A stretch of 52,328 nucleotides of DNA from an uncultured Clostridia bacterium (GTDB lineage Bacteria > Bacillota > Clostridia > TANB77 > CAG-508). The position numbers and the translations under genes are program-made. The notes beneath the pieces were generated by a model, which saw only the letters and a list, made by a program, of their open reading frames with translations, did not search any database and was not told where the DNA came from. How positions within the stretch are numbered: the first letter of the stretch is position 1; every line of letters begins with the position of its first letter. This document shows, piece by piece, positions 135-15,943 of this stretch. Where the stretch lies: NCBI GenBank assembly GCA_947626235.1, contig CANQRI010000001.1, positions 1 through 52,328 on the forward strand, written 5' to 3'.

Positions 135-198
135 TTTGAGCACCTCTTTCTACTAGTATAAATATTTTGTACACATATTTGGTATGTACAATAATATT

Positions 199-225
199 AT
201 TCGTCAAAAAAATATTTTTTCCTTC
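199..225 (-). promoter_or_regulatory. Candidate sigma-H-type promoter for spoVG
   Basis: Minus strand reads GAAGGAAA, then 12 nt, then GACGAAT. This fits my recollection of the SigH consensus (RnAGGwWW-11/12-RnnGAAT). It sits about 65 nt upstream of the spoVG ATG. spoVG is a classic SigH target in Bacillus. Confidence 0.35.
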
Positions 226-463
226 TAGTTTTTACAAATTTTCAAAAAATTTTTTTACTTTAATATGCTACCTCTATAAAAATTTATCTACATATTAATA
301 TTAAAAACTTTTATACTTATTATAATTAACATATTTTCAAAAAAAATACATATTATATAACAATATATAATAAACTTTCCTCTTTGTATTTATTATATTT
401 ATTTCAATTTTACATTTTTAATTATTATCTAATATTAACAACATAAAAACTTGCAAAAAACTA

Positions 464-492
464 TTGAAAAAATAGTTATATCATTATATAAT
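464..492 (+). promoter_or_regulatory. Candidate sigma-A promoter for murC
   Basis: TTGAAA (464-469), a 17-nt spacer, then TATAAT (487-492). It lies 28 nt upstream of the GTG start, and AAAGGAG is the SD. Confidence 0.5.
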
Positions 493-520
493 CATACATA
501 GACTATTAACATAAAGGAGT

Positions 521-1903
521 GTGCTTAAATTGGTAATTATTGACGATTTAAAAAAATATAAACATATTCATATGATTGGCATTGGTGGAGTTAGCATGAG
601 TGGAATTGCCGGAATATTAAAACACCTTGGTTTTACTGTTACTGGCTCTGATAGAACACAATCTGACATAACAAATAAATTAATACTTGAAGGCATTCAT
701 GTTGTTATTGGGCATGACTTTGACAATGTATCTACAGCAAATCTTGTAGTATACACTGCAGCCATAAAACAAGATGACCCTGAACTTATTAAAGCTAGAG
801 AACTTAATATTCCTACTGTTGAAAGAGCAGATTTTTTAGGAGAACTAACAAAAGCATTTTCAGAAACAATTTGTGTATCTGGAACTCATGGCAAAACTAC
901 AACTACTTCAATGATTTCTGTTTGCTTTATGGAAGCTGGTTTAGACCCTTCTATACAAGTTGGTGCTACATTAAAACAAATAAATGGAAACTACAGAGTT
1001 GGAAACAGCGACTACTTTATTATAGAAGCTTGTGAATATGTAGAAAGCTTTTTAAAATTTTACCCTAAAGCAGAAGTTATTCTTAATATTGATAATGATC
1101 ATTTAGATTATTTTAAAAACATAGAAAATATAAACAATGCTTTTATAAAATATGTTAAATTGCTACCAAAAACAGGTTTGTTAGTTGTAAACATTGACGA
1201 TAAATACTGTTCAGAACTTCATAAATATACTCCTGCAAAAATTGTTACATATGGAATTGAAAATGAAAGAGCACATTTTATAGCAAGAAATATCACCTTT
1301 GACAAAAATGGTTTTCCTACTTTTGATGTTTACCATAATAATTTCTTTTATTGTACTATTGAACTATCAATTCCTGGGCTTCATAATGTTTCTAATGCAC
1401 TTGCTTGCATAGCTTTATGTGATGCTTATGGAATATCTAAACCAGATTTAAAATCTGCTTTAAAGAAATATACTGGTGCACATAGAAGGTTTGAATTTGT
1501 AAAATCATATCAAGGTGCTAATATATATGATGACTATGGTCATCACCCTACAGAAATTAAAGCAACTGCAATGGCTTTAAAGAAAAAGCAATACAACCAT
1601 TCATGGGTTGTTTTCCAACCTCACACATACAGCAGAACTCAAAATTTATTAGATGACTTTGCTACTGCCTTAACTAATTTTGATAATGTAATTGTTACAG
1701 ACATTTATGCTGCCAGAGAAATAAATACATACAACATTTCTTCTCAAGATTTAGTAAATAAAATTAGATCTCTTGGCAAAAATGCTTTGTATATTTCTAA
1801 TTTCAATGATATTGTAAATTATTTAAAGCAACATGTTCAAAAAGACGACGTTATATTAACATTAGGTGCTGGAACAGTATCTCAAATAGGCTCTATGTTC
1901 TAA
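521..1903 (+). CDS. murC: UDP-N-acetylmuramate--L-alanine ligase
   Basis: IHMIGIGGVSMSGIAGIL N-terminal nucleotide-binding motif, the GTHGKTTTTSM P-loop, DDYGHHPTEI, and a typical length of 460 aa. Confidence 0.95.
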   Translation: MLKLVIIDDLKKYKHIHMIGIGGVSMSGIAGILKHLGFTVTGSDRTQSDITNKLILEGIHVVIGHDFDNVSTANLVVYTAAIKQDDPELIKARELNIPTVERADFLGELTKAFSETICVSGTHGKTTTTSMISVCFMEAGLDPSIQVGATLKQINGNYRVGNSDYFIIEACEYVESFLKFYPKAEVILNIDNDHLDYFKNIENINNAFIKYVKLLPKTGLLVVNIDDKYCSELHKYTPAKIVTYGIENERAHFIARNITFDKNGFPTFDVYHNNFFYCTIELSIPGLHNVSNALACIALCDAYGISKPDLKSALKKYTGAHRRFEFVKSYQGANIYDDYGHHPTEIKATAMALKKKQYNHSWVVFQPHTYSRTQNLLDDFATALTNFDNVIVTDIYAAREINTYNISSQDLVNKIRSLGKNALYISNFNDIVNYLKQHVQKDDVILTLGAGTVSQIGSMF

Positions 1904-2166
1904 ACTAATAGGGACGGGGTTAAATAGTTTAATGGATTGATTACTATAATGCAAAACATTAATATATTATTTATTTAGTAACTCCCAGCTGCATAATAGC
2001 TTGTAAAAAAAATTTATTTATGCAAAACAAGTTTTACAAAATAAATTTTTTACAAGCTATAATTTGCTGGTCCCCACAAAATGTTACTAAATAAATAATA
2101 TATTAATGTTTTGCAAATAATTTTAATATATTTCCATTAAACTATTTAACCCCGTCCCTATTAGTT
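1902..2166. repeat. Family-1 long imperfect palindrome (MITE-like), copy A
   Basis: Termini TAAACTAATAGGGACGGGGTTAAATAGTTTA and TAAACTATTTAACCCCGTCCCTATTAGTTTA are inverted repeats. Internal arms are also complementary (GCAAAACATTAATATATTATTTATTTAGTAAC with its complement). It fills the whole gap between the convergent murC and spoIVB stop codons. Confidence 0.8.
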
Positions 2167-2168
2167 TA

Positions 2169-3491
2169 TTAGTTTAGTTGCATCTCCTTTAGCATTAAAT
2201 CTGCAAAAACACCATAACCAGTTGTTGGATCATTTACTAACACATGCGTAACAGCCCCAACAAACTTTCCATCTTGTATAATAGGCGAACCACTCATTCC
2301 CTGAATAATGCCACCTGTTTTTTCTAAAAGTTCTTCATCAGTAACCTTTATAAGCATACTTTTATTATTAGAATTATTGTTGTAATATATTTTTTGAATT
2401 TCAATATCATAATATTTTTTATTTCCTGTTTCTATTTCACAAATAATTTGTGCTTTGCCTGTTTTTATTTTATCTCTTGATAACACTTCCATTTCATTTT
2501 TATTTGATACCTCTAAACTACTTGATGTCTCTAATTTTCCAAATATTCCAAAACTTGTATTATTATATACTTCACCAAGCTTACTTCCACCATCTATTGT
2601 TCCCCTTAATTCTCCTGGAACTCCTTTTTGTCCTTTCATTATTGATAATATATGTGCTTTTACTAATTCACCACTTGCTATTTTTACTAAACTTCCTGTA
2701 TCTATATCTGTTATTCCATGACCCAAAGATGCAAATTGTTCTGATGTAGGCTCATAAAAAGTAACTGTTCCCACTCCTGCTGCTGCATCTCTTACCCATA
2801 ACCCTAATTTATATTCGTTTTCGCTTGTTTTGGCCGGAATAATATTTGCCACCATCTCGGTGTCATTCTCTTCTTTTACATATTTTACTTCTAATTCTTT
2901 TCCTTTAGATTTATTTACCGTTTCTACTAAATCATCTGTACACGTTATTTCTACGTTATCTATTTTTATTATTCTATCTCCTTCTTCTATTCCTGTATTT
3001 TCATATGGTTTGTTACCATCTATATCTGACATTCCAACTACTAATACACCTTTTGTGTATAATTTCATACCTATTGAATCTCCTAAAGGTATTACTGTTG
3101 TTTTGGGAATGACGCTAACTGATATATTTTTTAATGGTATAGTATCGAAAATACTTACCCCTAAATCTATTTTACCTGTAATATTACTTTTCGTTTCATC
3201 ATTTTGATATGTTTCACCATTTTCCAAATTTCCCGTTTCTCCTGAAACCTCTTCAATAGTTGTATCAACTTTGTATTGCTCTAAATTAGGGTTAGTTGTT
3301 GCTATTTGCTTTATATTTATTCCCCATAATCTTGATACTTCCACATTTTCTCCTTGCATAATTATGATACTATTAGGCATTAATGTAATATTTGCTACAT
3401 ACATATATATTATTAGCAAAAAAAATAATACAATTAACTTCTTAAAAATTTTCATAATAAAAATTTCCTCCGTTAATTGTATTTTACCCAT
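2169..3491 (-). CDS. spoIVB: SpoIVB signalling serine peptidase (PDZ + S55)
   Basis: N-terminal TM segment, a PDZ-like segment (GIEEGDRIIKIDN), GTVTFYEP...FASLGHGITD (catalytic His region) and GMSGSPII (catalytic Ser). The start may be the internal MKIFKK. Confidence 0.9.
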   Translation of the reverse strand: MGKIQLTEEIFIMKIFKKLIVLFFLLIIYMYVANITLMPNSIIIMQGENVEVSRLWGINIKQIATTNPNLEQYKVDTTIEEVSGETGNLENGETYQNDETKSNITGKIDLGVSIFDTIPLKNISVSVIPKTTVIPLGDSIGMKLYTKGVLVVGMSDIDGNKPYENTGIEEGDRIIKIDNVEITCTDDLVETVNKSKGKELEVKYVKEENDTEMVANIIPAKTSENEYKLGLWVRDAAAGVGTVTFYEPTSEQFASLGHGITDIDTGSLVKIASGELVKAHILSIMKGQKGVPGELRGTIDGGSKLGEVYNNTSFGIFGKLETSSSLEVSNKNEMEVLSRDKIKTGKAQIICEIETGNKKYYDIEIQKIYYNNNSNNKSMLIKVTDEELLEKTGGIIQGMSGSPIIQDGKFVGAVTHVLVNDPTTGYGVFADLMLKEMQLN

Positions 3492-3574
3492 TTTTAAATT
3501 TTAAATTCTTAATATATAACTTAAAACATATTCAATAAATTAATTTATTTTTATACGACACACTTTTAAATCAT

Positions 3575-5332
3575 TTAGCTTCCATTCATTAAACTAATTG
3601 ACTCATACAAATTATATTTTTCTCTTGCCATAGTAGTAAAATATTTTTCTCTTACTTTTTTAAATTGTTCCTCTTTTATTGTATTACTTGTAGGTTCTCC
3701 ATATTCATTTAAAATTGTAATTTCCCCATCTATAAATTCATCTAAATTATATAAACCTCCAACATTTACTATACATTCATAGCAATATAAATATGGTGTT
3801 GTATTATCAGCCTGTTGAGGCATAAAATATACTGTATTTCCATTAGATACATCTACCTTTTGCCTTGCTATTTGCAATTTGGTATATGCTCCCATTATTT
3901 TTATGTTTTCATTATTTTCTGCTTCTTCTATTAAATGTTTGCAATTTGGTTTATGATATGTATACTTGTCTATTCCATCTACTGTTTCCTTTGTTAATAT
4001 AACTATTGAACCTTCGCTTATAAATTCTTTATTTTGATTATTTGAAATTACACAATAATTATTATACATTTTTGTCCCTATTGGTAAGCCTTGCATATAT
4101 GTAGTAATGCATACTTCTGTATATATTTTTTCCCAATCCTCTTCAGTTAATTTTGGTAATACATATTCATAGCCACTTGTTGACTCTGCATTAAAATTAG
4201 CAAGTGATGCAATTAAACTTGTTTCTAATCTATTTCTCATTATAGCTCTTCTATGAGTTTCAAATATTGATGATGACTTTTCAGGATCATTTGTAGTACT
4301 ATTAAATTCAAATATTTTTTGATATTTTCTTATATTGGAATCTGGATCTACTTCATATGTATTATTAGTTTCAAATTCGATTGTATTTCCATTTTCATCT
4401 ATAGCATTCTGCTCTGTTATAGAGCCTAAATTATCTTGTACCCATTTTGAAAATTTATATGCTTCTATATAGTAATTAATTGCACTTCTATTTGCATTCA
4501 TTGTACTAGCTGCATAATTTATTGTATCTATATTATTTGCTGAAACCGGCGTCTTTTCAAAATTTTCATACCAGAAATATTGATGTTGAACTTCATCCCA
4601 ATAAACCTTTCTATTATTATAAAAAGTATATGGATATGTTCCCTTCGTTGTTGTAATATTTCCTGTTGTAGTATCTCTTTGTTTAATTATAAGTGTTTCA
4701 CTTAAATTTTCAAACCCAATATCTAAACCTTTATATTTTATATTTGTAATAAAGTTTTCGCGTCCAGTATTTATATAATTTATAGTAGTGCTATCTATAT
4801 TAGATGGATTTATTAAAAAACCCGTTTTTGTTACATAACTTCCATTTACCATTCCATATACAGTTATTGCATTATCTAAAGTATAATTAATTACACAGTC
4901 TATATTATCCTTTTTATATCTACAAGAATAATAAATATATGGCTGTAATCCATACTCATATTCATTAGCATTTCGCGTATTTGCATATCTTCCATATACA
5001 TAGTAGCCATCATATAATGTATTTACAATTACAGGAGTATAACTCCTTAATGTATCTGCACTGATATTTATACTTGAACTTAACGAATCATAAAAAGTAT
5101 TTATTTCTGCCTCTATATCTCTTATTTTTGAATCACTAACTGAAGAATATCTATTATTTACTGTATTTAATTGAAATGCTTTTATTGCATCATAAGTAGC
5201 ATTCATAAGTTTCATATTATAATCAGACTGCAAAGTAATAGTTTTTACTTGAGAGTCTAAATACACACTCATTATGAATGTTATTGGAACTATCATAACA
5301 ATAAATATAACAATTAAATGTTGTAACTTCAT
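3575..5332 (-). CDS. Large N-terminally anchored protein, last gene of the filament operon (function unknown; candidate tip or adhesin component)
   Basis: The ORF-track TTG start at 5359 lacks an SD. The ATG at 5330-5332 (MKLQHLIVIFIVMIVPITFIM) follows GAGAGG by 9 nt. It has a single N-terminal hydrophobic helix, then about 560 aa rich in N/Y/T with several Cys pairs. Confidence 0.6.
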   Translation of the reverse strand: MKLQHLIVIFIVMIVPITFIMSVYLDSQVKTITLQSDYNMKLMNATYDAIKAFQLNTVNNRYSSVSDSKIRDIEAEINTFYDSLSSSINISADTLRSYTPVIVNTLYDGYYVYGRYANTRNANEYEYGLQPYIYYSCRYKKDNIDCVINYTLDNAITVYGMVNGSYVTKTGFLINPSNIDSTTINYINTGRENFITNIKYKGLDIGFENLSETLIIKQRDTTTGNITTTKGTYPYTFYNNRKVYWDEVQHQYFWYENFEKTPVSANNIDTINYAASTMNANRSAINYYIEAYKFSKWVQDNLGSITEQNAIDENGNTIEFETNNTYEVDPDSNIRKYQKIFEFNSTTNDPEKSSSIFETHRRAIMRNRLETSLIASLANFNAESTSGYEYVLPKLTEEDWEKIYTEVCITTYMQGLPIGTKMYNNYCVISNNQNKEFISEGSIVILTKETVDGIDKYTYHKPNCKHLIEEAENNENIKIMGAYTKLQIARQKVDVSNGNTVYFMPQQADNTTPYLYCYECIVNVGGLYNLDEFIDGEITILNEYGEPTSNTIKEEQFKKVREKYFTTMAREKYNLYESISLMNGS

Positions 5333-5361
5333 TTGTTTTAACCTCTCTATATTAAACAAGA

Positions 5362-5411
5362 CAGTTTTAAATTCAATACATCTAATAATTTAGATGTTAA
5401 ATTAAAAACTG
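5362..5411 (-). promoter_or_regulatory. Intra-operon extended hairpin
   Basis: CAGTTTTAAATT...ACATCTAA-TAAT-TTAGATGT...AATTAAAAACTG forms an imperfect palindrome between the fifth MEN gene and the 585-aa gene. The minus-strand RNA would be followed by UCUUGUUU. Confidence 0.3.
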
Positions 5412-5438
5412 CCCCCTTTTCAAATATTATTATAGTAT

Positions 5439-5963
5439 TTATCTATTTCCATTTACTGTAACTATGCCACTATCTTGTGCTGCAATTTGTGATGCATCAT
5501 TTCCTGCAAGTGAATAAAAGAAACTTCTTAAAAGATCTGCTATTGTTTGATTTGTATTTTTTACACTAACAACAACTCTATCTCCTTCTTTTAACACTAT
5601 TTGGTTATTTTTTGCTAATTCATCTTCTACTTGAGCCGTATATAAAACATAATATGTATTTTCACCTATTTTTGTAATTTCCGTTTGAGTTGTTTTTACA
5701 CCAGGGTTTTCATCTAGTATTTGTAATGTAATCTCTGGTTCAACAATTAGACCACCTGAAGAAGCTGAACTAATAAATTGTGTCCAATCACTTTGCGTCA
5801 ATTTTCCAGTTGTTCTGACTTTATCTACTAAATCATTTGTAACCGTTTGCAAAGCTAATTGAGATATATCGTCATTTCTTTCAGATAGGGACATTAAAGG
5901 AAATACAAATAATAATACTGCAGCTAAACCTATAACTACAACAACAATTAATGTATTTTCCAT
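5439..5963 (-). CDS. MEN-family pilin-like protein 5
   Basis: The true start is probably the ATG 9 nt after AGGAGG, giving MENTLIVVVVIGLAAVLLFVFPLMS. The track's TTG start abuts the SD. It has a hydrophobic N-terminal helix and a soluble C-domain. Confidence 0.6.
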   Translation of the reverse strand: MENTLIVVVVIGLAAVLLFVFPLMSLSERNDDISQLALQTVTNDLVDKVRTTGKLTQSDWTQFISSASSGGLIVEPEITLQILDENPGVKTTQTEITKIGENTYYVLYTAQVEDELAKNNQIVLKEGDRVVVSVKNTNQTIADLLRSFFYSLAGNDASQIAAQDSGIVTVNGNR

Positions 5964-6015
5964 AATAATCAACCTCCTATTTCTTAAAAATTTCTCAAAT
6001 TACTTTATCTTCAGA

Positions 6016-6822
6016 TTAATTGTTAGTTATTAGAGTATATGTTATTACTCTTTTCTTATTTTTTCTTAATATACTTGTAGTTTCTCCATCAACTGTTATT
6101 GTGGTACCTGAAGCTTCTACTTCTCCGCTTTCGTCACGCTCATATATGTATTCTCCAAGTTCTTCTACAAATTTTGGATTGTTTACATTTCCACCATTAC
6201 TTTGTATTAATCTTGTAATTCCATCATATTTAGTATTTCTAGAAGCATTGCCATCAGGAGATACAAAAGTATCTCCATTTAAGAAACAATCTATATTATG
6301 CTTCATATCACTTTGCTTTCCAGACCATGGTTCACGCCTTTTTATTTCTTCGTCCACGTCAAATGAACAAATATCATAAATTCGATTATCAGTTGCTGAT
6401 ATGTCACCCCAATAATTTTGCCATCTATAATCTCCCCAAAGCACTCTACCAGAATATGTTGCTTTATAAGGAGATTTTGACCTGTACAAAATTAAGTTTC
6501 CATTGTTTGCACCACTATATGTAACTTCTCCTGTTTCCTTGTTATAAGTACCTACTTTAAATATTACTGTATAATTTTCTCTATAATATTTGTATAATGT
6601 TGGTATTACTGTTTCTAACCCAACAACTCTTTTTTGGTATTTTGACATAACTTCACTATCATCATAAGTATAGTAATCATAATAATTTGTTTCATCTTGC
6701 ATTTCTACAACTGCATCTGATGTAGATTTTGCTTGTGTAAACATTACCATACTAATTGTTAAAGCCATTCCAAATACAATAACAGCAAACGCTATTTTTA
6801 AAGCTTCTACAGCATTTTCCAT
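6016..6822 (-). CDS. MEN-family pilin-like protein 4
   Basis: MENAVEALKIAFAVIVFGMALTISMVMF N-terminus, AGGAAG SD, and a 240-aa Y/W-rich C-domain. Confidence 0.6.
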   Translation of the reverse strand: MENAVEALKIAFAVIVFGMALTISMVMFTQAKSTSDAVVEMQDETNYYDYYTYDDSEVMSKYQKRVVGLETVIPTLYKYYRENYTVIFKVGTYNKETGEVTYSGANNGNLILYRSKSPYKATYSGRVLWGDYRWQNYWGDISATDNRIYDICSFDVDEEIKRREPWSGKQSDMKHNIDCFLNGDTFVSPDGNASRNTKYDGITRLIQSNGGNVNNPKFVEELGEYIYERDESGEVEASGTTITVDGETTSILRKNKKRVITYTLITNN

Positions 6823-6850
6823 ATTCTTTTCTTCCTATTCTAGGTTTGGT

Positions 6851-7324
6851 TTATTTAGTACCTGCTAAATCTCTAACATGAATTGCACATACTAAATTAC
6901 TATATTTATCATATTGAACTGTAACACTATATGTTTTTCCTGATTTTATCTGTGATTTCATATCTACTGCTGATTTTATATATTTTTCTGGATCTTGTTC
7001 ACCATCACTACCTGCTTCTCCTGAATTCTGATCATCTTCAAAGTCATCACCCTCATCAATATATACTTGTCTTGTAACATCATCCTTGTTTTGTGCATTG
7101 TGTTGTCTTACAACTTCACATAAAGTTAATACTCTAGAACCTTTTACTGATGAACCTGCATATTTTGTAAACTGATCATTATATTGTTGCACCTCAAATT
7201 GATCTAATTGTGAAGTAGAATCAACATTAGATGTTTGCATAAATACTGCCATACCTAAACCTATAATTAATACCGCTAATATTATTGCTCCTGCGATAAT
7301 TAGAGCTTTTGACGCATTCTCCAT
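6851..7324 (-). CDS. MEN-family pilin-like protein 3 (smallest; candidate major subunit)
   Basis: MENASKALIIAGAIILAVLIIGLGMAVF N-terminus and a GGGAGGA SD. KA/LI fits an archaeal class-III-type cleavage motif ([KR][GA]/[LI..]). Confidence 0.6.
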   Translation of the reverse strand: MENASKALIIAGAIILAVLIIGLGMAVFMQTSNVDSTSQLDQFEVQQYNDQFTKYAGSSVKGSRVLTLCEVVRQHNAQNKDDVTRQVYIDEGDDFEDDQNSGEAGSDGEQDPEKYIKSAVDMKSQIKSGKTYSVTVQYDKYSNLVCAIHVRDLAGTK

Positions 7325-7377
7325 AATAATTTCCTCCCTTGTTTTTTATATATTAATTAAAATTTAAAAATTAATAA

Positions 7378-7818
7378 CTACATTTGTTCAATAAATAGAC
7401 TTTTTACGGCCTTTGTTTTTTCGTGATACTCTATGTTTGTACATTTAAAAGAAATTGCTCCAAAATTTTTTACAAATTCTATCGAACCCTGCCTTGCAAT
7501 GTTTTCCATTCTATATATAAATTCTTCATCATCCTTTCCTTTAAACTTTACTGTAATTATTATAGAATTTGTATCATTTTCTTGATATTCACCCTTTTCG
7601 TTTTTTGCAACCTCATTTTTTTCGTTTAAGTCTATTGTTTTATTAATTATTGAGATTATATCTGTTCCTAGCACCTCTACATTGTAATATGATTCGTAGT
7701 CTGAATTTACTTTTTGTAATTCTCTTAATTTACTTTGATAAACATTATTACAATATACAACTGCTGTTATTACTATAATCGCTATTATTATAAATGATAT
7801 TATTATCTTTTTCAACAT
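7378..7818 (-). CDS. Small N-terminally anchored protein in the filament operon
   Basis: MLKKIIISFIIIAIIVITAVVYC TM helix followed by about 120 aa of soluble domain. AGGAGG lies immediately upstream, so the start may be the TTG one codon in. Confidence 0.55.
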   Translation of the reverse strand: MLKKIIISFIIIAIIVITAVVYCNNVYQSKLRELQKVNSDYESYYNVEVLGTDIISIINKTIDLNEKNEVAKNEKGEYQENDTNSIIITVKFKGKDDEEFIYRMENIARQGSIEFVKNFGAISFKCTNIEYHEKTKAVKSLFIEQM

Positions 7819-7889
7819 AACCTCCTATATTTTATTATATCACTTTTATTAGTATAATTCAACTTTTTTAGCTTTTATTATCTATTTTT

Positions 7890-8471
7890 CTAATTTATTG
7901 GTGTAATTTTCATATATTTTATTCTATTTGTATCTGCACTAATTCGTATATTTTCCACAACACATTCGTAATATTTAGTTTTAGCTACCATTTTCCCTGT
8001 TGTAGGATCTGTAGTTTGTATTATTGAATTATCTTCTATAAACTTTATTTTATCACTATCACTTTTATTTTCAAAATAATTATATCTTTCCTTTTTACTA
8101 TTTTCCACATCTATTCTTACATAATTTGTTGCATCAGAATCTCTATCATCCAATGTATAACCACTATTTACATCATAAAATCCATAGTTTGTATTATTTT
8201 CTTTTGCACAATTTGCTATTGTAACTATGTCATGAGCAGTAATTAATACTCGTTTTGATTCTAATTCCTCATCAGTCATATCATCACTTAAATAACTTAC
8301 ATATCTTAAAAAGTTATCATTAAATTGACTATCTTTCGTAGCAGCCATTTTTTTTTGCGCATTTTCCGAATATTCAGAAAATATATTAAAAAGTGTAATT
8401 CCTACAGTAATTACCATAACCCCAAGTAATATAGATGCTGCCATTATTAATGCTTTTGATGCATTCTCCAT
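7890..8471 (-). CDS. MEN-family pilin-like protein 2
   Basis: MENASKALIMAASILLGVMVITVGITLF N-terminus and an AAGGAAAGGAA SD. Confidence 0.6.
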   Translation of the reverse strand: MENASKALIMAASILLGVMVITVGITLFNIFSEYSENAQKKMAATKDSQFNDNFLRYVSYLSDDMTDEELESKRVLITAHDIVTIANCAKENNTNYGFYDVNSGYTLDDRDSDATNYVRIDVENSKKERYNYFENKSDSDKIKFIEDNSIIQTTDPTTGKMVAKTKYYECVVENIRISADTNRIKYMKITPIN

Positions 8472-8488
8472 TTTTATTTCCTTTCCTT

Positions 8489-9247
8489 TTAGTTTGTAGT
8501 TGCTTCCTTGAAACTCATTTCGCTTACTCTTCCATTTAAATCATATTCTACATTTGTACAAGAAAAATATTTTGCCCTAAATGATGTAAGTGCGGAATTA
8601 AGTGCTGTATAAAGTTTTATATCTTTTTCTACTGCCTCTACTCCTCCAGATAATCCATCAACTTTCATTGCTTTATTGTATTGATCAATCAAATCTTTTG
8701 TATCCCTATGTAAATTCATATTTGCATTTATTTGATTTTGGTATTGAATTTGCAAATCTATTAATGTATCTATTGGTTTTCCCCTTGCATTATATGTTGT
8801 TTCAATATTTGATATTTTATTTTTTATACTATTTAAAGCATTAGTTAATTTATCTACACTATTTGGTGCTTTTACAGTATATGTGCCTTTTTTTATATCA
8901 TAATTTCTGCCATCACTTTCATCGTACCCTAAACTAGTTAATGTTATTTCATCTTCTATTGTAATATGTAGCTCAATTGGATCATACTGTTTGTCTTCAT
9001 TTGCCTCCATTATATTATAGTCTTCTGCTCTATTTATAATAGATACAATATCACTTCCATATAAAACTCTCTTGTCAAATTGTTCAAACCTTTTATTATA
9101 TTCTAATATATCTGCAAGCTCTTGTTCTCTTTGTTCTTCAGCTTTAGACTCATTCATTCTATTAAATGCCAACACTACCAAACCTATTACTAATAAGCTT
9201 ATTAGAATTTCACCTGCTATCAAAAGTGCTTTTGATGCATTTTCCAT
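8489..9247 (-). CDS. MEN-family pilin-like protein 1
   Basis: MENASKALLIAGEILISLLVIGLVVLAF N-terminus and a GAGGAA SD. The first 23 nt are nearly identical to those of the genes starting at 8471 and 7324. Confidence 0.6.
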   Translation of the reverse strand: MENASKALLIAGEILISLLVIGLVVLAFNRMNESKAEEQREQELADILEYNKRFEQFDKRVLYGSDIVSIINRAEDYNIMEANEDKQYDPIELHITIEDEITLTSLGYDESDGRNYDIKKGTYTVKAPNSVDKLTNALNSIKNKISNIETTYNARGKPIDTLIDLQIQYQNQINANMNLHRDTKDLIDQYNKAMKVDGLSGGVEAVEKDIKLYTALNSALTSFRAKYFSCTNVEYDLNGRVSEMSFKEATTN

Positions 9248-9291
9248 TTTTCCTCATTCCTTTCATCTAGTCTAAAGCATGTATATTTATA

Positions 9292-11370
9292 CTACATTGA
9301 AGATAATGTATTAAATGAATCAGTCATACTTGTTAATCCTATAAATACCAATGGAACAATTAAATAGCCAACAAATAATACTACCATAGGTGCAAAACCT
9401 ATTCCTTTTCCTATCATACCTTTTTTAGAAATTAACCTTTCATTTGATTCCTTTCTTTTTGCTTGATAATAGTCTCTTTCTGTATCTAACTCATCAAATG
9501 CATCCTTAATTGGTATTTTTTCAACTGCAGATTGAAGACTTTGAATTATACGTATAAAATCTTCATATGTTACATCTTCTTTCATTGCCTCTAATGCTTC
9601 CCAAGCACCACTTTCATAGTTATTTATACATTTACTTAATGGGTCTTTAAAGATATTGGCATATCTTTCAAGCCATTCTAGTATGATTTCAACATTAACC
9701 CTTTCTATTCTCATAAGCATAAGTATTATTGTTTGGAATTGCATTACTTCGTCTTCCATTTCTAGTTGACGCATTTTTGTTTGGAATATTAACATAAGTA
9801 TTGGTGCCATATAAGCAATCATAGCAATTACCATTGCTCCTAACACTTCTACCCAACTTAAATATTCACTATTTACAATTCCTATTTTTCCTATAACTCT
9901 TTCTGCTGCTTTTTCTATTTCAGCATCTTTAGCATGCGAATAAGTATCATTTATTCTTCCACTCTTCATTGCTGCAGCAATTTTATCTTGTTTTAAATTT
10001 GCCTCATTTTTAAATGCATTTATATAATCATTATCCGACTGTGTTAGTTCCATGGCACTTTTTTGCGCCTTTTCAGTCATCGCGCCTATAATGTCATACG
10101 TTGTTGTAGGATCTGTATAAACATTATTAATTGTTATTTGATGCAGTTGATTAAACAAGAATAACGAAACAAAAAACGATACAATACACAAGGTCAATCT
10201 ATTAACATAAATCCATTCAATTTTGTCTTTACAAGCTGCATCTTTCATTTGTTTCTTTATTTTTCTGTTTTCTTTAGTTCCCTCTTTTGGTATAAACAAA
10301 TCTACTATTTTCTTTACTGGTTTTATTCTATATAATTTCTCTTGCCATGGATTTTCAGTATTTTTTGTGTTCATAGATGTTGAACCATTATCTTTTAATT
10401 TTCTAGTTAATATGTAACATACAAATGTTAATACTAATAATAATATTTGTACTAACATTCCGTCCTTTCCTTGATAGAATGATGCTGTAAAGCTAAATTG
10501 TGATACTGCCCAATTTTTAATTGGCTCTATTGCAAGCATTGGCACTATTGCAATTACTGATAAACTTTGAAATACATAATTTAATTTATCTCTTTTTAAT
10601 ATTTCAAGTTGCATTTCTTGAGTAATATTATTTAAATTTTTTAAGTATAATGATGCACCATCAACTTTTCTATCGCCAAACTCTTTTGTAAGGTATGATA
10701 CTCCTGCAAACTCTTTTAAGTAACTATTTGGAGCTATATCATAATATTTTTCTAGTTCTGATTCTGGATCATTTGATATTAATACTTCATATATCTTTTC
10801 TGCTTGTCTTGACATTTCTGGGTTATCGTCGTCTTGGGCTGTTTGGTATATTGCTTCCTCTACCATGTTAAACTCATTGTAGGCATGTCTTATTTGTGAA
10901 AAGAAATGTATTTGTTGTTTTAACAAGTTGTTATCAATCTTATCTACCATTCCATCTATTACTGTATCTACCATAAATACTTCAAATATTAATAATATGC
11001 ACATTAATAATAGATTTTTGCTAGTTAATACTATTATTCCAATAGTTAATGGAATTATTATTAACAATGCTTTTGTTAAAATTTTTGAAGCTCTATTTCT
11101 TGTTAAATATTCATCGTCTAAATTTATTATTTCAAGCCTTCTTCTCAATTTTAGTATATATCTTTTTAAAAATGGTGTTTTTAAATAAAACATATACAAT
11201 TTTTGATACATTACTTCCATTGAGAAACTAGACTCTTTTGTTCCAGCTTGTAATTGATTTATATATTTTTTTTCTTTATTGTTTTTATTTATATAAATAT
11301 ATGCTATTATTATTGCTACAAGTAGTGCTGCTGCACCACCCATCATATATAGTAATATATCTTGTGACAT
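9292..11370 (-). CDS. Polytopic membrane protein resembling a fused TadB+TadC (two T2SSF-like modules)
   Basis: 692 aa with about 7 TM segments. Two cytoplasmic helical domains are each followed by TM helices, and each matches the T2SSF pattern by eye (for example EKIYEVLISNDPESELEKYYDIAPNSYLKEFAGVSYLTKEFGD, and FKDPLSKCINNYESGAWEALEAMKEDVTYEDFIRIIQSLQSAVEK). Confidence 0.5.
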   Translation of the reverse strand: MSQDILLYMMGGAAALLVAIIIAYIYINKNNKEKKYINQLQAGTKESSFSMEVMYQKLYMFYLKTPFLKRYILKLRRRLEIINLDDEYLTRNRASKILTKALLIIIPLTIGIIVLTSKNLLLMCILLIFEVFMVDTVIDGMVDKIDNNLLKQQIHFFSQIRHAYNEFNMVEEAIYQTAQDDDNPEMSRQAEKIYEVLISNDPESELEKYYDIAPNSYLKEFAGVSYLTKEFGDRKVDGASLYLKNLNNITQEMQLEILKRDKLNYVFQSLSVIAIVPMLAIEPIKNWAVSQFSFTASFYQGKDGMLVQILLLVLTFVCYILTRKLKDNGSTSMNTKNTENPWQEKLYRIKPVKKIVDLFIPKEGTKENRKIKKQMKDAACKDKIEWIYVNRLTLCIVSFFVSLFLFNQLHQITINNVYTDPTTTYDIIGAMTEKAQKSAMELTQSDNDYINAFKNEANLKQDKIAAAMKSGRINDTYSHAKDAEIEKAAERVIGKIGIVNSEYLSWVEVLGAMVIAMIAYMAPILMLIFQTKMRQLEMEDEVMQFQTIILMLMRIERVNVEIILEWLERYANIFKDPLSKCINNYESGAWEALEAMKEDVTYEDFIRIIQSLQSAVEKIPIKDAFDELDTERDYYQAKRKESNERLISKKGMIGKGIGFAPMVVLFVGYLIVPLVFIGLTSMTDSFNTLSSM

Positions 11371-11389
11371 GTTTTATTTCACCTCTATC

Positions 11390-13355
11390 CTATGCTTGAT
11401 TTAATGGTTTTCTTCCTCTTCTTTTTGGTTGCATATCGCTATCTTCTTTTTCTTCATCTTCATATCTTGCTACTTTCATTCCCCAATTTCTTTCTATGAA
11501 TTTAATAAAATCTTCTGCATCTGCATCATCCATATTGTTTAGCATTTCTCTAATGTTGTGGTCAGTTATTCTATTGGTTAATACATACTCTCCATCATGA
11601 TACTCTAATATGTTTTGATATCTATATAATTCTCTATTAGTTGTTTTTGTAAAATAATATGTAGCATTGTCTATAAATTTATCTAATTTTCCTTCTATTG
11701 TTTTTTCTTTTCTATGATCAAATGTATATTCATTTTTTTGCTCTACTGGTATACATTCAGTTACTCTTTCTATGTATCTTCTTCCTCTAAAGTCTTTTAT
11801 TAAGTGTATATCAAAATTCAATACTTGTACAACTTGCTCTTCAGCTGTTCTTTCATCTTTGAAAACTCCTGCTCTTAACATTGAGTTACGAAGTGCTGTT
11901 ACTAAGTCTGGAAAAGTTTTAGCGTGGTGAGTAAATAATGTAAATTTAGATGCAACTTGTGCAGATTGAATCATCCAAGATGCAACGGGGTCTGTTGCAA
12001 CCTCACCTATGATATTAACAGAACCATCGGTTTTCTTTTGAACGTCCAAACAGTCTTGTCCAGATACTGTTTCAGTTTCACGCATTGATAATATATTTCT
12101 TGTTGGATATATTTTTCTTAAGTGTAACTCAAATGCAGTTTCTGTAATACGAAGGTTCATTGTTTCGTATATATTTTCTATCATCGCCATAAGCATTGTT
12201 GTTTTTCCGACATCCTTGCTCTCCTGTAAGTGATATAATTCTTGCACCTTTTACTAAATATTTTAATAATTCAATTGCTTCTTCCTTTCCAGGGAATCTA
12301 ATAATTTGCTCTAATGTTGCACGCTTTACGTCGAATTTTCTTACAAAGAACGCCCATGTTTCAGACATACTTGGTCTTACAACAACAACACGAGAACCAT
12401 CTTTCATTTCATTAATTTTATAACCATTAGTATCTGATAATTGACCTGGGTTATTATATTTATAAATATTTTGACATACTCTTTTTAATTCTGCTTCTGA
12501 TCCAAAAGATAAAAACTCTAAACGTATAGATTTACCTTGGAACATTATCCAAATACTGTCGCAGGCACGTGGAACTTTATGATCTAGCATTTGGTCTATA
12601 TAATCTCCATCTGTTTGCGCAACTTGGCTTAAAAAGCTTTCTGGTAATCCAGATACACCACCTGAAATACCATCTATATTCATATCTCTTATTTCATCTA
12701 TTGTACTATATCCTTTATAATGTTGATATATTCTTTGTACTACTACATTTAATTTATCTTGGAAAGTTAACATTAAATTTTCTTTTTCATATATCTCATC
12801 TATTTCACTACTTGTTATTACATATGATGGTTTAGCTTCACCTTCAACATATTTTAATCTTGCTAAATCATATTTCTTAATTATTTCAGTTAATGCTTCA
12901 TATCCAAACTCTTGCTTGTACATATATAATATAATTTCAAATTTATCTTGAGCTGTTAAAAGTGATGGTATATCAAATGGAATTGCTTTAGAAACATTTA
13001 ATTCTGTAACTCCATATTCTTTTGACAATAAATCATATATTAATTCTTTTATATATTTTTTATCATTAACATCTCCATAAGTACAACCTTTTAACGCCTT
13101 TTTTAATTCATATTTCTTATTTTTTCTTCTTTTTAATTCCTCTTCAGATAAACCTATATCATAAAGATTTATTTTTGTTATTTCATCTAATCTCTTTTTT
13201 ATAAAAGCAGTCATAACTTCTAATGTATATGTTTTATCATCTACATTTATTTGTTCTTCAACTTTTGCATCTTGCTTTTTCTTTAAGTTTCTTATAATTA
13301 AAAATCCTGCCAAAACTAAAACTGCTAATATTAATATTATGTTTAAAAACTGCAT
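11390..13355 (-). pseudogene. CpaF/TadA (VirB11-class, T2SSE) secretion ATPase, frameshifted in Walker A (ORF pieces 12129-13355 and 11390-12247)
   Basis: The upstream piece ends ...GARIISLTGEQGCRKNNN*. The downstream frame reads ...SKDVGKTTMLMAMIENI. Removing 1 nt near 12207-14 restores TGEQG(V/C)GKTT, a canonical Walker A. The downstream piece also has DGSVNIIGEV (Walker B region) and FTLFTHHAKT (His box). The total span of 1966 nt equals 3n+1. Confidence 0.8.
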
Positions 13356-13376
13356 TTTTTGGCTCCTTTCTTAAGG

Positions 13377-14216
13377 TTATGCTTTCATTTGTAATTCTTG
13401 TATTTTAAATAATAAATCTTGTGACATTCTTTGTGTTTCTTTTATAAATGTTGCATTTCTATCTGTTTCTTTAGTACTTCTAAATCTTAAAAAGAACTCT
13501 GCAACCTTCGAATCTGATGTTGCTTCAAAAAATAAAGTATTGTATGGTATTACTGATATTTCCTTTTTTAATCTTATATATCTTGTTACATTTTTTGCAT
13601 TGTATTTTGAAAACTTATCATATCTGCCTATATTTAGCATTATATTGTTTTTCTTAAAAAAGTCATTTGTTTGTGTTAAGTTTATATAATCATCTATTAT
13701 TGCTAATTTTTGAGTTATATTTATTACTATTACATCTGCCATTTGTAAAATTTTATTTGCTTGTGCTGGTGGCATTTTTTTTGATATATCAACAAATACT
13801 AAATCATAATCTTTGTTGGCAACTTGTATAATTTGTGGATACAGATTACATATAGATTTGTATTCTTCATAACTTTTCGTATTACTAGAACATAATACAT
13901 CAAATCTATCTTTAAAAACTACTCTTGCATAGTTTGACACTATTGAATTTGAAGTTTTATTACTTGTTACTATTTTTATTAAACCTTCAATTCCTGATTC
14001 AAAACCAACTTGACTATTATTTGTTAGATTTTGGGCTATGCTGTTTTGTCTTGACATACTCCAAAAGCAATTTTCTAAAGTTTTATTATTAAATTCTGTA
14101 CTTATATCCAATATTTTTTTGTTGTGTTCTATTGACATGTAAGTACTTAATGCTACCATTGATAGCGTTTGTCCTGTTTCATTACTTTCTCTACTCCAAA
14201 ATGCTATAATAGACAT
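13377..14216 (-). CDS. ParA/MinD-fold protein with degenerate Walker A (TadZ-like) 2
   Basis: MSIIAFWSRESNETGQTLSMVALS occupies the place of xKGGxGK[ST]. It has a DLVFVDIS Walker-B-like segment. Its ATG lies 1 nt after the upstream stop, which suggests translational coupling. Confidence 0.55.
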   Translation of the reverse strand: MSIIAFWSRESNETGQTLSMVALSTYMSIEHNKKILDISTEFNNKTLENCFWSMSRQNSIAQNLTNNSQVGFESGIEGLIKIVTSNKTSNSIVSNYARVVFKDRFDVLCSSNTKSYEEYKSICNLYPQIIQVANKDYDLVFVDISKKMPPAQANKILQMADVIVINITQKLAIIDDYINLTQTNDFFKKNNIMLNIGRYDKFSKYNAKNVTRYIRLKKEISVIPYNTLFFEATSDSKVAEFFLRFRSTKETDRNATFIKETQRMSQDLLFKIQELQMKA

Positions 14217-14217
14217 T

Positions 14218-14931
14218 CTATACTCCTCTTTCTATTCTTTTCATTATCTTTCTAATTTGTGGGTAACTTTCTTCTCCTGTTAATTGTGTAGCTATATACA
14301 TTAAGCCTTCTTTATACTGATTACTCAAATTTCTAATTCTAATTTTTTCTGCTTTTTGATTTTCATATATAACTGTTTGATCTCCTAATTCAAATGGCAT
14401 GTTGACTGTGCTTTGCTCATCCCACGTTACTTTGCATTCTCTAGTTATATAATTTAAATATTCGTTTTCTTTTTTAGTTGCATTTCTTGAAAATATTATT
14501 TTTGTCATATTTGTAGGTTCCTTAAATGCACTGAAAGTCATTATTCCTCTTTTTATTGAATATAAATCCAATGATGTTACAAAGTAATTTTTATCACATT
14601 TTTCTATTTCAAAGTTCACTGCCATATTAGGTGTATCTACATCTATTAATATATAATCGTAATTAATTGGTGAGCTTAATGGTATTCCTAAATATTGTTT
14701 TATATAATTATAATTTTGAAATCCAATTGCTATATCTATTCCTTCATATTGTGTAACATACATTCTTTCTGGTTTTATAGTTGGAATAGTAAATCTAGAT
14801 TTTTGTGTTATTGATGCATCTATAAATAAAACTGTATTTCCCATTTCTACCAACAATTTTGATATATATAGTATAAAATCTGTTTTTTCACATCCCCCTA
14901 TAAAACCTACTTTTTTCATTATAAATTTCAT
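14218..14931 (-). CDS. ParA/MinD-fold protein with degenerate Walker A (TadZ-like) 1
   Basis: KKVGFIGGCEKTDFILYISKLLVEMGNTVLFIDAS, where GGCEKT replaces GGxGKT, plus a YILIDVD Walker-B-like segment. Confidence 0.55.
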   Translation of the reverse strand: MKFIMKKVGFIGGCEKTDFILYISKLLVEMGNTVLFIDASITQKSRFTIPTIKPERMYVTQYEGIDIAIGFQNYNYIKQYLGIPLSSPINYDYILIDVDTPNMAVNFEIEKCDKNYFVTSLDLYSIKRGIMTFSAFKEPTNMTKIIFSRNATKKENEYLNYITRECKVTWDEQSTVNMPFELGDQTVIYENQKAEKIRIRNLSNQYKEGLMYIATQLTGEESYPQIRKIMKRIERGV

Positions 14932-15016: not shown

Positions 15017-15943
15017 TTACTCTCCTAGTGATTCCAAATAACTTTGTCTTTCATCTGCTGCTCTATCAATTTCTTCTTCTACTCCAGATGCTATGTTGTC
15101 TTGTGCATCATCTGGCTCATAACTATTTATTAATGGATCTAATGTACCTTGTCTTATTGCTATATTTCTATTATACAATGTAAATAATGCATTTTTTGCT
15201 TCTTGTAATATGTTTGGATCTGCAAGCATTAAATTTTGTGTAGAAGCTTTTGGTACAAATGTTGTTGTTGCAGCTGTTTGCATTCCTGGTTCTACATATT
15301 TTGTTACATATAACATTGAACCCTCTAATTGATATGCTTCTATTATTGCATTACTCATTACTAATATTTCAGCCTCTGTCATGTTTAGCCATAAAGTTGT
15401 TTCTGATTCTGTTCCTGAAACTGCTGGAATTTCAACTTTCTTTTTAGATATTACAATATAATCTTCTCCACTTGGTAAACGAAATCTTATATCTATAACA
15501 TCTCCTGTTTGTATTTGCGTCATCAGTCTTAACATATTGTATTCTTGCAATCTCATGTCATCTGTTGTTGCATTTTCACTTTCTGTTATCATATCTTCTG
15601 TTACTATTGTTCCTTTAGTTAAATTTATTTTAGCAATTAAATTTTCTTTAGGATTTCCATCATCATCATAAAACGCATCCATTGTTATTGCATTAGTTGG
15701 TATTGCTGAAGAAGCTATTTTTTGTGTTGTGAATAATTCTTCACTAATACTGTCTCCTGAATTTACATCTTCAGATAGCATATATACCTCTTTTAATGCT
15801 TTTCTTTCTGCCTCTCTTTCTTTATTAATGTTGACTAGTTGATATACTAAAAAGCCTATTATACTTCCTGTAATAAGTAATGTTACTAATACTCCTATTA
15901 TTAAATACATATTTGCTTTTCTTTGCATTGGATTCATTGCCAT
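15017..15943 (-). CDS. CpaB/RcpC-like pilus assembly protein (TM + SAF + RcpC-like)
   Basis: N-terminal TM (YLIIGVLVTLLITGSIIGFLV), a SAF-like segment (IAKINLTKGTIVTEDMI), GDVIDIRFRL, and a strong AAGGAGG SD. It is the first gene of the operon. Confidence 0.6.
   Translation of the reverse strand: MAMNPMQRKANMYLIIGVLVTLLITGSIIGFLVYQLVNINKEREAERKALKEVYMLSEDVNSGDSISEELFTTQKIASSAIPTNAITMDAFYDDDGNPKENLIAKINLTKGTIVTEDMITESENATTDDMRLQEYNMLRLMTQIQTGDVIDIRFRLPSGEDYIVISKKKVEIPAVSGTESETTLWLNMTEAEILVMSNAIIEAYQLEGSMLYVTKYVEPGMQTAATTTFVPKASTQNLMLADPNILQEAKNALFTLYNRNIAIRQGTLDPLINSYEPDDAQDNIASGVEEEIDRAADERQSYLESLGE

Follow-up and report, generated by a model that had tools for sequence, protein, structure and literature searches.

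A divergent, unannotated relative of the Tad pilus operon in gut Clostridia and its candidate filament subunits

We analysed positions 1 to 52,328 of contig CANQRI010000001.1 (assembly GCA_947626235.1) from an uncultured Clostridia bacterium; this whole stretch of 52,328 nucleotides is called the window. It has a G+C content of about 27%, and nearly all of its genes lie on the minus strand. A tightly packed operon of twelve genes (3575–15943, minus strand) is located between spoIVB (2169–3491) and a block of DUF2651, truA, and cdaA (16127 onward). Four of the twelve genes encode proteins that begin with the residues MENA and are therefore called MENA proteins here. The operon is probably a very divergent, unannotated relative of that of the bacterial Tad pilus, with the MENA proteins as its filament subunits.

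Results

Layout of the operon

The operon encodes proteins of 308, 237, and 279 amino acids (aa), a secretion ATPase, a 692-aa membrane protein, and the 252-aa MENA protein as genes 1–6, followed by the 193-aa MENA protein, a 146-aa paralog, the 157-aa and 268-aa MENA proteins, a 174-aa protein, and a large single-pass protein as genes 7–12 (Table 1). A genome scan with the 157-aa protein yielded 521 confirmed relatives, from which 80 loci were retained, all belonging to uncultured gut Clostridia. The gene order of the twelve-gene cluster is kept in about 70 of these 80 related loci. The operon proteins were all scanned against Pfam, NCBIfam, and PHROGs, and none of the twelve genes in the window has a match above the threshold of these collections. 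We found no description of the system in the literature.

A conserved N-terminus of the MENA proteins

The four MENA proteins share the N-terminal pattern MENA(S/V)(K/E)AL, which is followed by about 20 hydrophobic residues. A Shine-Dalgarno sequence precedes each of their genes, and that of the 157-aa gene is strong (GGGAGGAAATTATT-ATG). The original prediction, made from the DNA letters and their translations, had described five pilin-like paralogs at this site. The conserved N-terminus with its hydrophobic segment is borne out in four genes of the window and extends to 304 genes in 81 loci. The fifth gene belongs to an unrelated family, and a variant with a different anchor, the 146-aa paralog, had been overlooked. 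The prediction was right that the 5′ ends of three genes are nearly identical, as the first 21 nucleotides of the three MENASKAL genes differ at one or two positions.

The 304 genes, two to five per locus, come from the window and the 80 related loci, and were collected by a pattern that fixes M1, E2, and N3. An in-frame upstream start before a stop is absent in 284 of them, and 279 have a Shine-Dalgarno-like motif at most 20 nucleotides from the start; M1 is therefore the true N-terminus of these proteins. Position 7 is alanine in 294 and position 8 leucine in 288 of the 304 genes. Position 6 is occupied by lysine or arginine in 230 and by aspartate or glutamate in 65, and the acidic residue is found throughout the 268-aa family. 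Small residues recur at positions 4, 7, 11, and 12.

Family alignments were made from the related loci, and the conservation of each segment was expressed as its mean pairwise column identity. The MENA families score 0.77–0.99 over residues 1–8, 0.46–0.65 over residues 9–28, and 0.26–0.36 over the rest. The N-terminus is best conserved in the 157-aa family, where residues 1–8 reach 0.99. The 121 orthologs of this protein (alignment A1) have an overall identity of only about 40%, yet each of their first 12 residues is either invariant or conserved to at least 90%, a level that 24 of the first 25 residues reach. In the 252-aa family, the N-terminus scores 0.90 and the head 0.26. Given this distribution of conservation among the segments, the N-terminal helix appears to be under residue-level constraint, like the core helix of pilins, rather than being merely hydrophobic.

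An index-free search of 1.84 billion representatives of 50%-identity clusters with the hidden Markov model (HMM) of the 157-aa family retrieved 5,968 clusters at E<=1e-3 and 2,643 at E<=1e-10. Among the matches listed, 150 of 150 align from residue 1, and 141 of the 144 new ones start with MENASKAL. Judged from these alignments, the N-terminal conservation is far beyond chance. In some loci (L008, L009), the 157-aa gene is duplicated. The 252-aa protein carries a glutamate, E13, inside the hydrophobic helix (MENASKALLIAGEIL), and a glutamate occupies this position in 26 of the 304 family members. E13 recalls the buried glutamate of pilins, yet it is located at a different position and in one paralog only.

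Table 1 Features of the operon and their coordinates in the window
Feature	Position	Strand	Remarks
MENA protein 1, 252 aa	8489..9247	-	Candidate minor subunit; starts MENASKALLIAGE
MENA protein 2, 193 aa	7890..8471	-	Candidate minor subunit; starts MENASKALIMAAS
MENA protein 3, 157 aa	6851..7324	-	Candidate major subunit; starts MENASKALIIAGA
MENA protein 4, 268 aa, MENAVEALK...	6016..6822	-	Candidate minor/tip subunit; starts MENAVEALKIAFA
146-aa paralog, generic MLKK... signal-anchor (MLKKIIISF...)	7378..7818	-	Sixth gene, between MENA genes
174-aa single-pass protein, consensus MGDSL...FVFPLMS...SERTDDISQLA	5439..5963	-	Separate, well conserved family
Large single-pass protein, 585 aa from MKLQHL	3575..5332	-	Last gene; candidate tip/adhesin component
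692-aa polytopic membrane protein, candidate fused TadB/TadC-type platform	9292..11370	-	About 8 predicted transmembrane helices
CpaF/TadA-like secretion ATPase, encoded in two frames	11390..13355	-	Own N-terminal transmembrane helix
Candidate programmed +1 frameshift site TGT CGG A	12206..12212	-	Inside Walker A; C at 12209 skipped
279-aa ParA/MinD-like protein	13377..14216	-	TadZ/CpaE-like candidate 2
237-aa ParA/MinD-like protein, degenerate P-loop	14218..14931	-	TadZ/CpaE-like candidate 1
308-aa protein, N-terminal transmembrane helix and SAF domain (CpaB/RcpC-like)	15017..15943	-	First operon gene

Heads, anchor variant, and downstream proteins

Pairwise HMM-HMM alignment of the families (hhalign) indicates homology of the 252-, 193-, and 157-aa proteins across some 80 residues (probability 99.7–99.9%). 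The 268-aa protein has only its first 40–46 residues in common with the other MENA proteins (96–97%). The C-terminal domains, which had been taken as unrelated, are thus not all unrelated. The heads have 31–40% identity among loci, compared to about 80% for the ATPase and about 68% for the 692-aa protein.

The 146-aa paralog combines the same type of head with an ordinary signal-anchor. Its residues 29–146 align with the 193-aa family at a probability of 97.7%, and its match to the 252-aa family reaches 98.8%. The conservation pattern is reversed in this protein, with scores of 0.46 over residues 1–8, 0.30 over residues 9–28, and 0.43 over the rest. The gene is found in 78 of the 80 loci, and in the window a promoter-like TTGAAT-17-TATAAT is located just upstream of it (7862–7834).

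The 174-aa gene starts at ATG 5963, 9 nucleotides behind AGGAGG, which agrees with the re-called start of the fifth supposed paralog. Its product begins with MENTLIVVVV. The family consensus is MGDSLITIVAIFLAAILMFVFPLMS, in which MEN is not conserved, so the MEN of the window copy is incidental. The 174-aa family has no significant HMM-HMM match to the MENA families (probability <6%). Homologs of the 174-aa protein are present in all the divergent plasmid and Lachnospiraceae systems examined. In all systems they are followed by homologs of the 585-aa protein, which are 321–378 aa and up to 1287 aa long. The family consensus of this large protein starts with MKLQHL, nine codons inside an open reading frame (ORF) with a TTG start, and the protein has no Pfam match.

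Motor ATPase and its candidate +1 frameshift

The profile built from unsplit orthologs of the ATPase matches CpaF in the PDB (8rkd/9e24, E=5e-9) over residues 274–540, which takes in Walker A, the Asp box, and the Walker B region; VirB11 reaches only 0.062. The Pfam T2SSE match is weak or faint in four of the five relatives inspected and missing in the fifth. Plasmid homologs are 36–58% identical over their full length and are annotated as TadA, CpaF, or "ATPase, T2SS/T4P/T4SS family". The N-terminus of the protein (12129–13355, minus strand) forms a hydrophobic helix (MQFLNIILILAVLVLAGFLII), and about 270 residues precede the CpaF-like region. Secretion ATPases of this family do not usually have a membrane anchor.

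At the split of the ATPase gene, the zero frame reads ...GGA GAG CAA GGA TGT CGG AAA AAC.... Joining 13355–12210 with 12208–11390 results in a 654-aa protein with the Walker A motif GEQGCGKTT (GEQGC-GKTTMLMAMI), 535 residues of which are identical to a 639-aa unsplit ortholog. The junction peptide of the shifted product would be ...LTGEQGCGKTTMLMAMIENIYETMNLR. The position was compared across 69 related loci: 38 have TGY-C-GGA-AAR, and the other 31 have in-frame TGT GGT AAA. The shift site also occurs in a circular metagenome-assembled genome from HiFi reads (L022). None of the 15,752 other in-frame codons of the window is CGG, though this trinucleotide can be found 66 times on the same strand. 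The split loci contain 50 CGG among 144,325 codons, and the shift site itself presumably accounts for most of these.

A sequencing error was rejected as the cause of the split, as 38 independent assemblies carry the same extra C and vary synonymously in the sequence next to it. Slippage on a run of A was rejected as well, as loci L010, L036, and L061 have CGG AAA GAC, which lacks the run of five A. A separately translated C-terminal fragment would, judging from the P-loop fold, be devoid of the β-strand before the P-loop. For this reason, a conserved, programmed +1 frameshift at a "hungry" (or unassigned) CGG codon is the simplest reading of this candidate site. We found no report of it in the literature.

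The candidate site resembles the +1 frameshifting of prfB (RF2) and Ty3, where one nucleotide is skipped at a slowly decoded zero-frame codon to give the full-length protein, and it is likewise conserved across species. It differs in that the slow codon is a sense codon otherwise avoided by the genome and not a stop, the P-site UGY cannot re-pair in the +1 frame, and the site is located within the Walker A of a pilus-type motor.

Platform candidate and upstream genes

The 692-aa protein is located directly behind the ATPase in all relatives, which is the position of TadB/TadC in Streptomyces. In the AlphaFold2 model of the protein, calculated with 81 sequences (predicted local distance difference test score, pLDDT, of 72.8), one arrangement is repeated twice, at about 120–284 and 506–677. 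The repeated unit is composed of a transmembrane segment continuing into a long helix, several short helices, and a long helix continuing into a transmembrane segment. The N-terminal and C-terminal halves do not match each other significantly in hhalign. The 692-aa protein is likely, though not established, to be the platform of the machine.

The SAF family of Pfam (PF08666) is detected in 18 of 26 orthologs of the 308-aa protein (best E=2.2e-6); the window copy itself has no Pfam match. The protein is syntenic in 68 of the 80 loci, and its plasmid homologs are annotated as "SAF domain-containing protein" by the annotation pipeline PGAP. The 237-aa protein, conserved in 68 loci, has a weak match to a MinD profile (E=0.03) and none in Pfam. 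Among 30 orthologs of the 279-aa protein, 11 match Pfam CbiA (MinD/ParA; best E=4.9e-6) and five match AAA_31. The family also matches ParA in the PDB (3ea0, E=0.0024), and the Thermobacillus homolog is annotated as ParA. A receiver-like N-terminal domain is absent from these TadZ/CpaE-like candidates. PDB sequence searches returned nothing for the profiles of the SAF protein, the 157-aa family, and the platform (both A3 and A7).

Relatives in cultured bacteria and on plasmids

Plasmid relatives were sought in PLSDB by tblastn of the unsplit ATPase, requiring a match to at least 80% of the query. The search yielded 33 records with 36–58% identity. The carriers include Thermobacillus composti, Cohnella, several Paenibacillus including P. 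polymyxa M1, Alkalihalophilus pseudofirmus OF4, Lysinibacillus sphaericus C3-41 (pBsph), Clostridium argentinense, C. botulinum, C. beijerinckii, and Butyrivibrio proteoclasticus (pCY186, pCY360). The plasmid relatives were reached via the ATPase only, as tblastn of the 157-aa protein against plasmids gave no match. A genome scan with the Butyrivibrio platform retrieved nothing beyond close Butyrivibrio relatives.

The same gene order is found on plasmids of Thermobacillus, Lysinibacillus, Butyrivibrio, and C. argentinense: the SAF protein, two proteins of about 230–390 aa (one annotated as ParA), the ATPase, a 665–690-aa hypothetical protein, small proteins with an N-terminal transmembrane segment, the 174-aa homolog, and the large-protein homolog. 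The small proteins of these divergent systems start with MSTNASKALYFGASLLL, (M)ESPVVKAIILAVTIF, MGGSLSEGLRTVFAVVL, MDSPVVKKIFLALAVLL, MGNDNASSALKFAIGLAV, and MDKGPVEALAIVISVVV, and their heads have the motif Y.DN..V.GSEV in common. Glu2 is not universal among them, the polar segment is 7–9 residues long, and the [A/G]-[L/I] junction is usual but not constant. Ten plasmid homologs and ten further pilin-like homologs match no Pfam, NCBIfam, or PHROGs family above threshold.

Some copies on plasmids and in Lachnospiraceae adjoin genes for a type IV secretion system coupling protein (TraG/VirD4; Pfam T4SS-DNA_transf/TraG), relaxase-like proteins, and NlpC/P60 wall hydrolases. Such neighbors are located at 1–4570 of locus L083, 4075–7146 of L085, 2467–3990 and 19576–22007 of L091, and 1–3280 of L093. 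VirB4 was not seen in any inspected stretch of the loci. The window contains no VirB4, coupling protein, or relaxase, and the latter two (the relaxase as relaxase-like genes) stand only beside some of the plasmid or mobile-element relatives. Mobile copies might possibly act in cell-cell contact during transfer; no such neighbors accompany the copy in the window. The plasmids with full-length homologs are typed as "non-mobilizable" by MOB-suite.

In three of the four plasmid loci inspected, the operon is followed by an SLH/cell-wall-binding protein and a very large protein, which is annotated as DUF5704 in two of them (L083 19039–25119; L084 15566–19939; L086 15842–21042). A GGDEF protein follows in two of these three loci. 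The record NZ_CP013205.1 (L099/L100), "plasmid pHD02" of Paenibacillus sp. IHB B 3084, carries mutS, mutL, miaA, hfq, glnA, lexA, and cotE. With genes such as mutS and lexA, pHD02 looks like a chromosomal fragment, and the operon is therefore probably chromosomal in this strain.

Discussion

MENA proteins as candidate filament subunits

The MENA feature is real, strongly conserved, and essentially unannotated, and the best available reading places it in the type IV filament/Tad superfamily as a divergent variant. We propose, with a probability of about 0.55, that a Tad-derived filament or pseudopilus is built from the MENA proteins as subunits whose N-terminus is non-canonical. A subunit role is supported by the presence of several paralogs per locus with a common N-terminus and divergent heads. 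The operon context, the number and pattern of the paralogs, the duplication of the 157-aa gene, and the conservation profile suggest pilin-like subunits as well. Gene content, synteny, the family of the ATPase, N-terminal conservation, and the true start codons are direct observations; polymerisation, the roles of the subunits, the lack of cleavage, and the function are inferred. The pilin idea of the original prediction thus stands as the best available reading on the basis of context and conservation, and it gains no backing from fold, motif, or Pfam families.

In the proposed mechanism, each subunit would insert into the membrane with its N-terminus inside, via a 21-residue hydrophobic helix. 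The membrane-anchored CpaF-like ATPase would power the 692-aa platform, which may extract the subunits and stack them through their nearly invariant, Ala/Gly-rich N-terminal helices. The product would be a filament or a short pseudopilus crossing the Gram-positive wall, and we hypothesize that it functions in adhesion or aggregation. The 157-aa protein would be the major subunit, and the 252-, 193-, and 268-aa proteins minor or tip subunits. The 146-aa paralog, in which a head of the same type sits on an ordinary anchor, could remain in the membrane as a base or primer. The 174-aa and 585-aa proteins may form a tip or adhesin module, the SAF protein would play the role of CpaB, and the two ParA-like proteins that of TadZ.

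Several results weigh against a filament of pilin-like subunits. The AlphaFold2 monomer of the 157-aa protein, calculated with 121 sequences (pLDDT 77.9), consists of a low-confidence helix (residues 3–31, pLDDT 55–67), a disordered segment (31–41), and a separate α/β head (pLDDT about 90). It lacks the continuous helix packed on a sheet that characterizes the classic pilin fold. A Foldseek search of the PDB with this model retrieved no pilin or other meaningful match (best E=0.76). The original prediction had expected a long helix joined to a β-rich head, and had named ordinary single-pass proteins without a packing helix as the opposite outcome; the helix, linker, and head of the model, with no match in the PDB, come close to the latter. 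A monomer model may nevertheless differ from the conformation adopted in a filament, which it cannot exclude. No MENA member scores above threshold for any pilin family of Pfam. Flp_Fap, TadE, N_methyl, and Pilin_N are outside the 25 most frequent of 63 Pfam families matched at E<=0.1 by the 121 orthologs, and gave zero matches in the ten divergent homologs scanned. For the platform candidate, the sole low root-mean-square deviation (rmsd) match in Foldseek is the cytoplasmic domain of EpsF (2vmb_A; probability 0.95, TM-score 0.63, rmsd 3.6 Å over 123 columns), which together with the twofold architecture of the model speaks for the machine, but its E value is 2.3. Pfam and PDB sequence searches with the window protein, three profiles, and four plasmid homologs gave no match at all, T2SSF (PF00482) included. 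The hhalign comparison of the 692-aa family with four TadB/TadC proteins is not significant, which is a weak negative because the TadB/TadC profile is thin. A filament of these proteins has so far not been observed.

Sub-threshold Pfam matches among the 121 orthologs comprise DUF515 (11 sequences), DUF7288 (five, best E=2.3e-5), and ComGG (four, best E=3.9e-4). The region matched is probably the N-terminal helix.

Processing and alternative readings

The odds are slightly better than even that no classical A24 peptidase processes the subunits and that the MENASKA segment is retained wholly or for the most part. This view is based on the start at M1 in 284 of the 304 genes, the lack of a nearby Peptidase_A24, and the lack of a glycine at -1 and a glutamate at +5. 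The original prediction had correctly noted that the motif corresponds neither to G/FTLxE nor to Flp. The N-terminus also departs from class III signal peptides, since the "leader" would comprise at most seven invariant residues with alanine at -1. Peptidase_A24 was absent from every ORF of at least 90 aa in the window and from the genes called within 10 kb in five relatives. No prepilin peptidase is annotated beside four plasmid copies, and the GxGD[..]K prepilin-peptidase motif is absent from the 81 loci, which is a crude test. The pHD02 record was scanned whole for a peptidase, and is uninformative as it looks chromosomal.

Alternatively, the MENA proteins could be true prepilins with a seven-residue class III-like leader, cut by a remote peptidase (PilD, ComC, TadV, or an unknown enzyme) between A7 and L8 and assembled by the same machine. 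We regard this as doubtful. The genes of prepilin peptidases often lie apart from the systems they serve, and several systems may share one enzyme (PMC6668835), so that processing at A7/L8 by a remote enzyme could occur, and the carrier B. proteoclasticus has chromosomal ones (PMC2914790). This weighs against a cleavage-free filament, as does the nearly invariant A7–L8 junction, which is retained after leaders of 7–9 residues in divergent systems and fits a cleavage site as well as a structural constraint. Along with the prevalence of A7 (294 of 304), L8 (288), and K/R at position 6 (230), the junctions MSTNASKA/L, MESPVVKA/I, MGGSLSEG/L, MDKGPVEA/L, and MGNDNASSA/L (the slash marks the putative cut) speak for a cleaved precursor. 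A strict archaeal-type site is disfavored, however, since the entire 268-aa family has D/E at -2 (position 6, 65 of 304 genes), the junction in C. argentinense is K-K/I, and that of one Butyrivibrio paralog is E-Y/M. The K-A/L site suggested by the original prediction is therefore not general, with E-G, E-A, S-A, and K-K found among the relatives. Cleavage is further disfavored because the MENA proteins lack the Gly at -1 and Glu at +5 that are the norm for bacterial substrates of PilD, ComC, and TadV (PMC3244431), because M1-E2-N3-A4-S5 is invariant within the clade beyond the need of a discarded leader, and because the plasmid-borne copies have no annotated peptidase nearby.

The MENA proteins might also be bitopic proteins of a static wall-spanning or surface structure in a Tad-derived secretion or mating apparatus, whose task might be plasmid transfer or the export of the large surface proteins encoded downstream, with the conserved N-terminus acting as a platform docking motif. 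The AlphaFold2 model, resembling an anchor with a flexible linker and a head, is in line with such a role, and so is the paralog bearing the same head on an ordinary anchor. The coupling-protein, relaxase-like, and NlpC/P60 genes beside the plasmid and Lachnospiraceae relatives, and the SLH/cell-wall-binding and giant DUF5704 proteins that come next, point in the same direction. We nevertheless consider this reading unlikely, because genes for a coupling protein, relaxase, or hydrolase are missing from the vicinity of the window operon and of most chromosomal relatives, because residue conservation in the helix and several paralogs, one of them duplicated, are typical of polymerising pilins, and because CpaF-type motors are known from filament assembly only (PMC6668835). 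That the common N-terminus is incidental, a product of recently duplicated or converted generic signal-anchor proteins, could be supposed from the one or two base differences among the first 21 nucleotides of three genes. It is highly improbable, given that the same N-terminus recurs in thousands of 50%-identity clusters and in four paralog families over 81 loci whose heads are about 30% identical. The paralog families are orthologous across species, which makes the duplications old, and the position counts, the HMM search, and the segment conservation effectively refute a recent origin.

We further speculate that the Tad-derived filament of MENA subunits is peptidase-independent and type IV-like, retains an intact fMet-Glu-Asn-Ala-Ser-Lys-Ala, has a fused platform and, in about half of the sampled lineages, a frameshift-gated motor, and has been reused by large Firmicute plasmids. 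This combination is tentative as a whole. If it applies, the plasmid-borne machine is possibly a mating or aggregation pilus.

Comparison with known filament systems

The operon has a close resemblance in layout to Tad/Flp pilus loci. Its ATPase is nearest to CpaF, a protein with an N-terminal transmembrane helix and SAF domain and ParA-like proteins are encoded upstream, and small proteins with a hydrophobic N-terminal helix follow the platform. An annotated Streptomyces Tad locus has a parallel order of SAF protein, hypothetical protein, CpaF, TadB, and a hypothetical protein in the position of TadC, and continues with a small Flp-sized hypothetical protein and two "pilus assembly" proteins. 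Unlike in Tad systems, a single 692-aa membrane protein devoid of the T2SSF sequence signal stands in place of TadB and TadC, the ATPase has an N-terminal transmembrane helix and about 270 extra residues, and the two ParA-like proteins are short. The putative subunits, 157–268 aa long with α/β heads and without the G/xxxxEY motif, differ from Flp (about 60 aa). There is no match to TadE (PF07811) or Flp (PF04964), and TadV is missing from the locus.

Tad-like operons of Gram-positive bacteria that lack a recognisable prepilin, and whose biosynthetic genes are distantly related, were described from Clostridia, namely from C. kluyveri, C. cellulolyticum, C. bolteae, C. sp. L2-50, and D. hafniense (Imam et al. 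2011, PMC3244431). The present operon is similar to them in having tad-like genes without a prepilin signal-peptide motif. Those loci are reported to have recognisable tadC and tadV, whereas the operon of the window has recognisable homologs of neither, and the MENA family is not described in that paper (PMC3244431).

The sequence MENASK-A/L resembles archaeal class III substrates of PibD, FlaK, and EppA in its short leader with K/R at -2 and A/G at -1. Archaeal FlaJ/PilC-type platforms are single large polypeptides, as is the 692-aa protein. Differences from archaeal pilins are the leader of only seven, invariant residues, the D/E at -2 in one paralog family, the position of Pilin_N (PF07790) outside the top 25 Pfam families of the 121 orthologs, and an archaeal-type peptidase that was not found. 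The ComG pseudopilus is likewise a type IV filament of monoderms with one major and several minor pseudopilins encoded behind an ATPase and a platform, and four of the 121 orthologs have a sub-threshold ComGG match. ComG pilins, however, have G/F..E and need ComC, and the ATPase of the operon groups with CpaF and not with ComGA/PilB.

To our knowledge, no type IV filament studied to date does without a prepilin peptidase and a recognisable class III signal peptide, and search tools such as PilFind and TXSScan/MacSyFinder make use of these features. The operon evades nearly all annotation, as its family matches are limited to weak ones for the ATPase, SAF, and ParA; yet public data contain about 6,000 50%-identity clusters of the candidate major subunit alone. 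Small-genome gut Clostridia commonly carry the system, as do large plasmids of cultured Paenibacillus, Lysinibacillus, Clostridium (including a C. argentinense plasmid and C. botulinum plasmids), and Butyrivibrio. Should the subunits assemble uncleaved, a step that defines type IV filament biogenesis would turn out to be optional. A role of the plasmid copies in mating would make them candidates for the missing pilus of Gram-positive conjugation. The +1 frameshift in Walker A, if real, would be a rare case of bacterial recoding, and would explain why automatic annotation splits the ATPase gene or calls it a pseudogene.

Surroundings of the operon

The adjoining spoIVB invites a link to sporulation, which was rejected: the adjacency is found in 58 of the 80 loci, but other relatives and all the plasmid copies differ. 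The window contains two diadenylate cyclase genes, of the CdaA type (17519–18424, minus strand) and the DisA type (42712–43794, minus strand). It also carries genes for an IS200-like transposase (45306–46079), an MrcB-like/NOV_C protein (20320–21519), and tRNA-Glu(CTC) (18780–18854). About 10 kb from the operon are located a GGDEF protein (25707–26804) and a 1070-aa protein with a weak ParA-like stretch (26839–30051).

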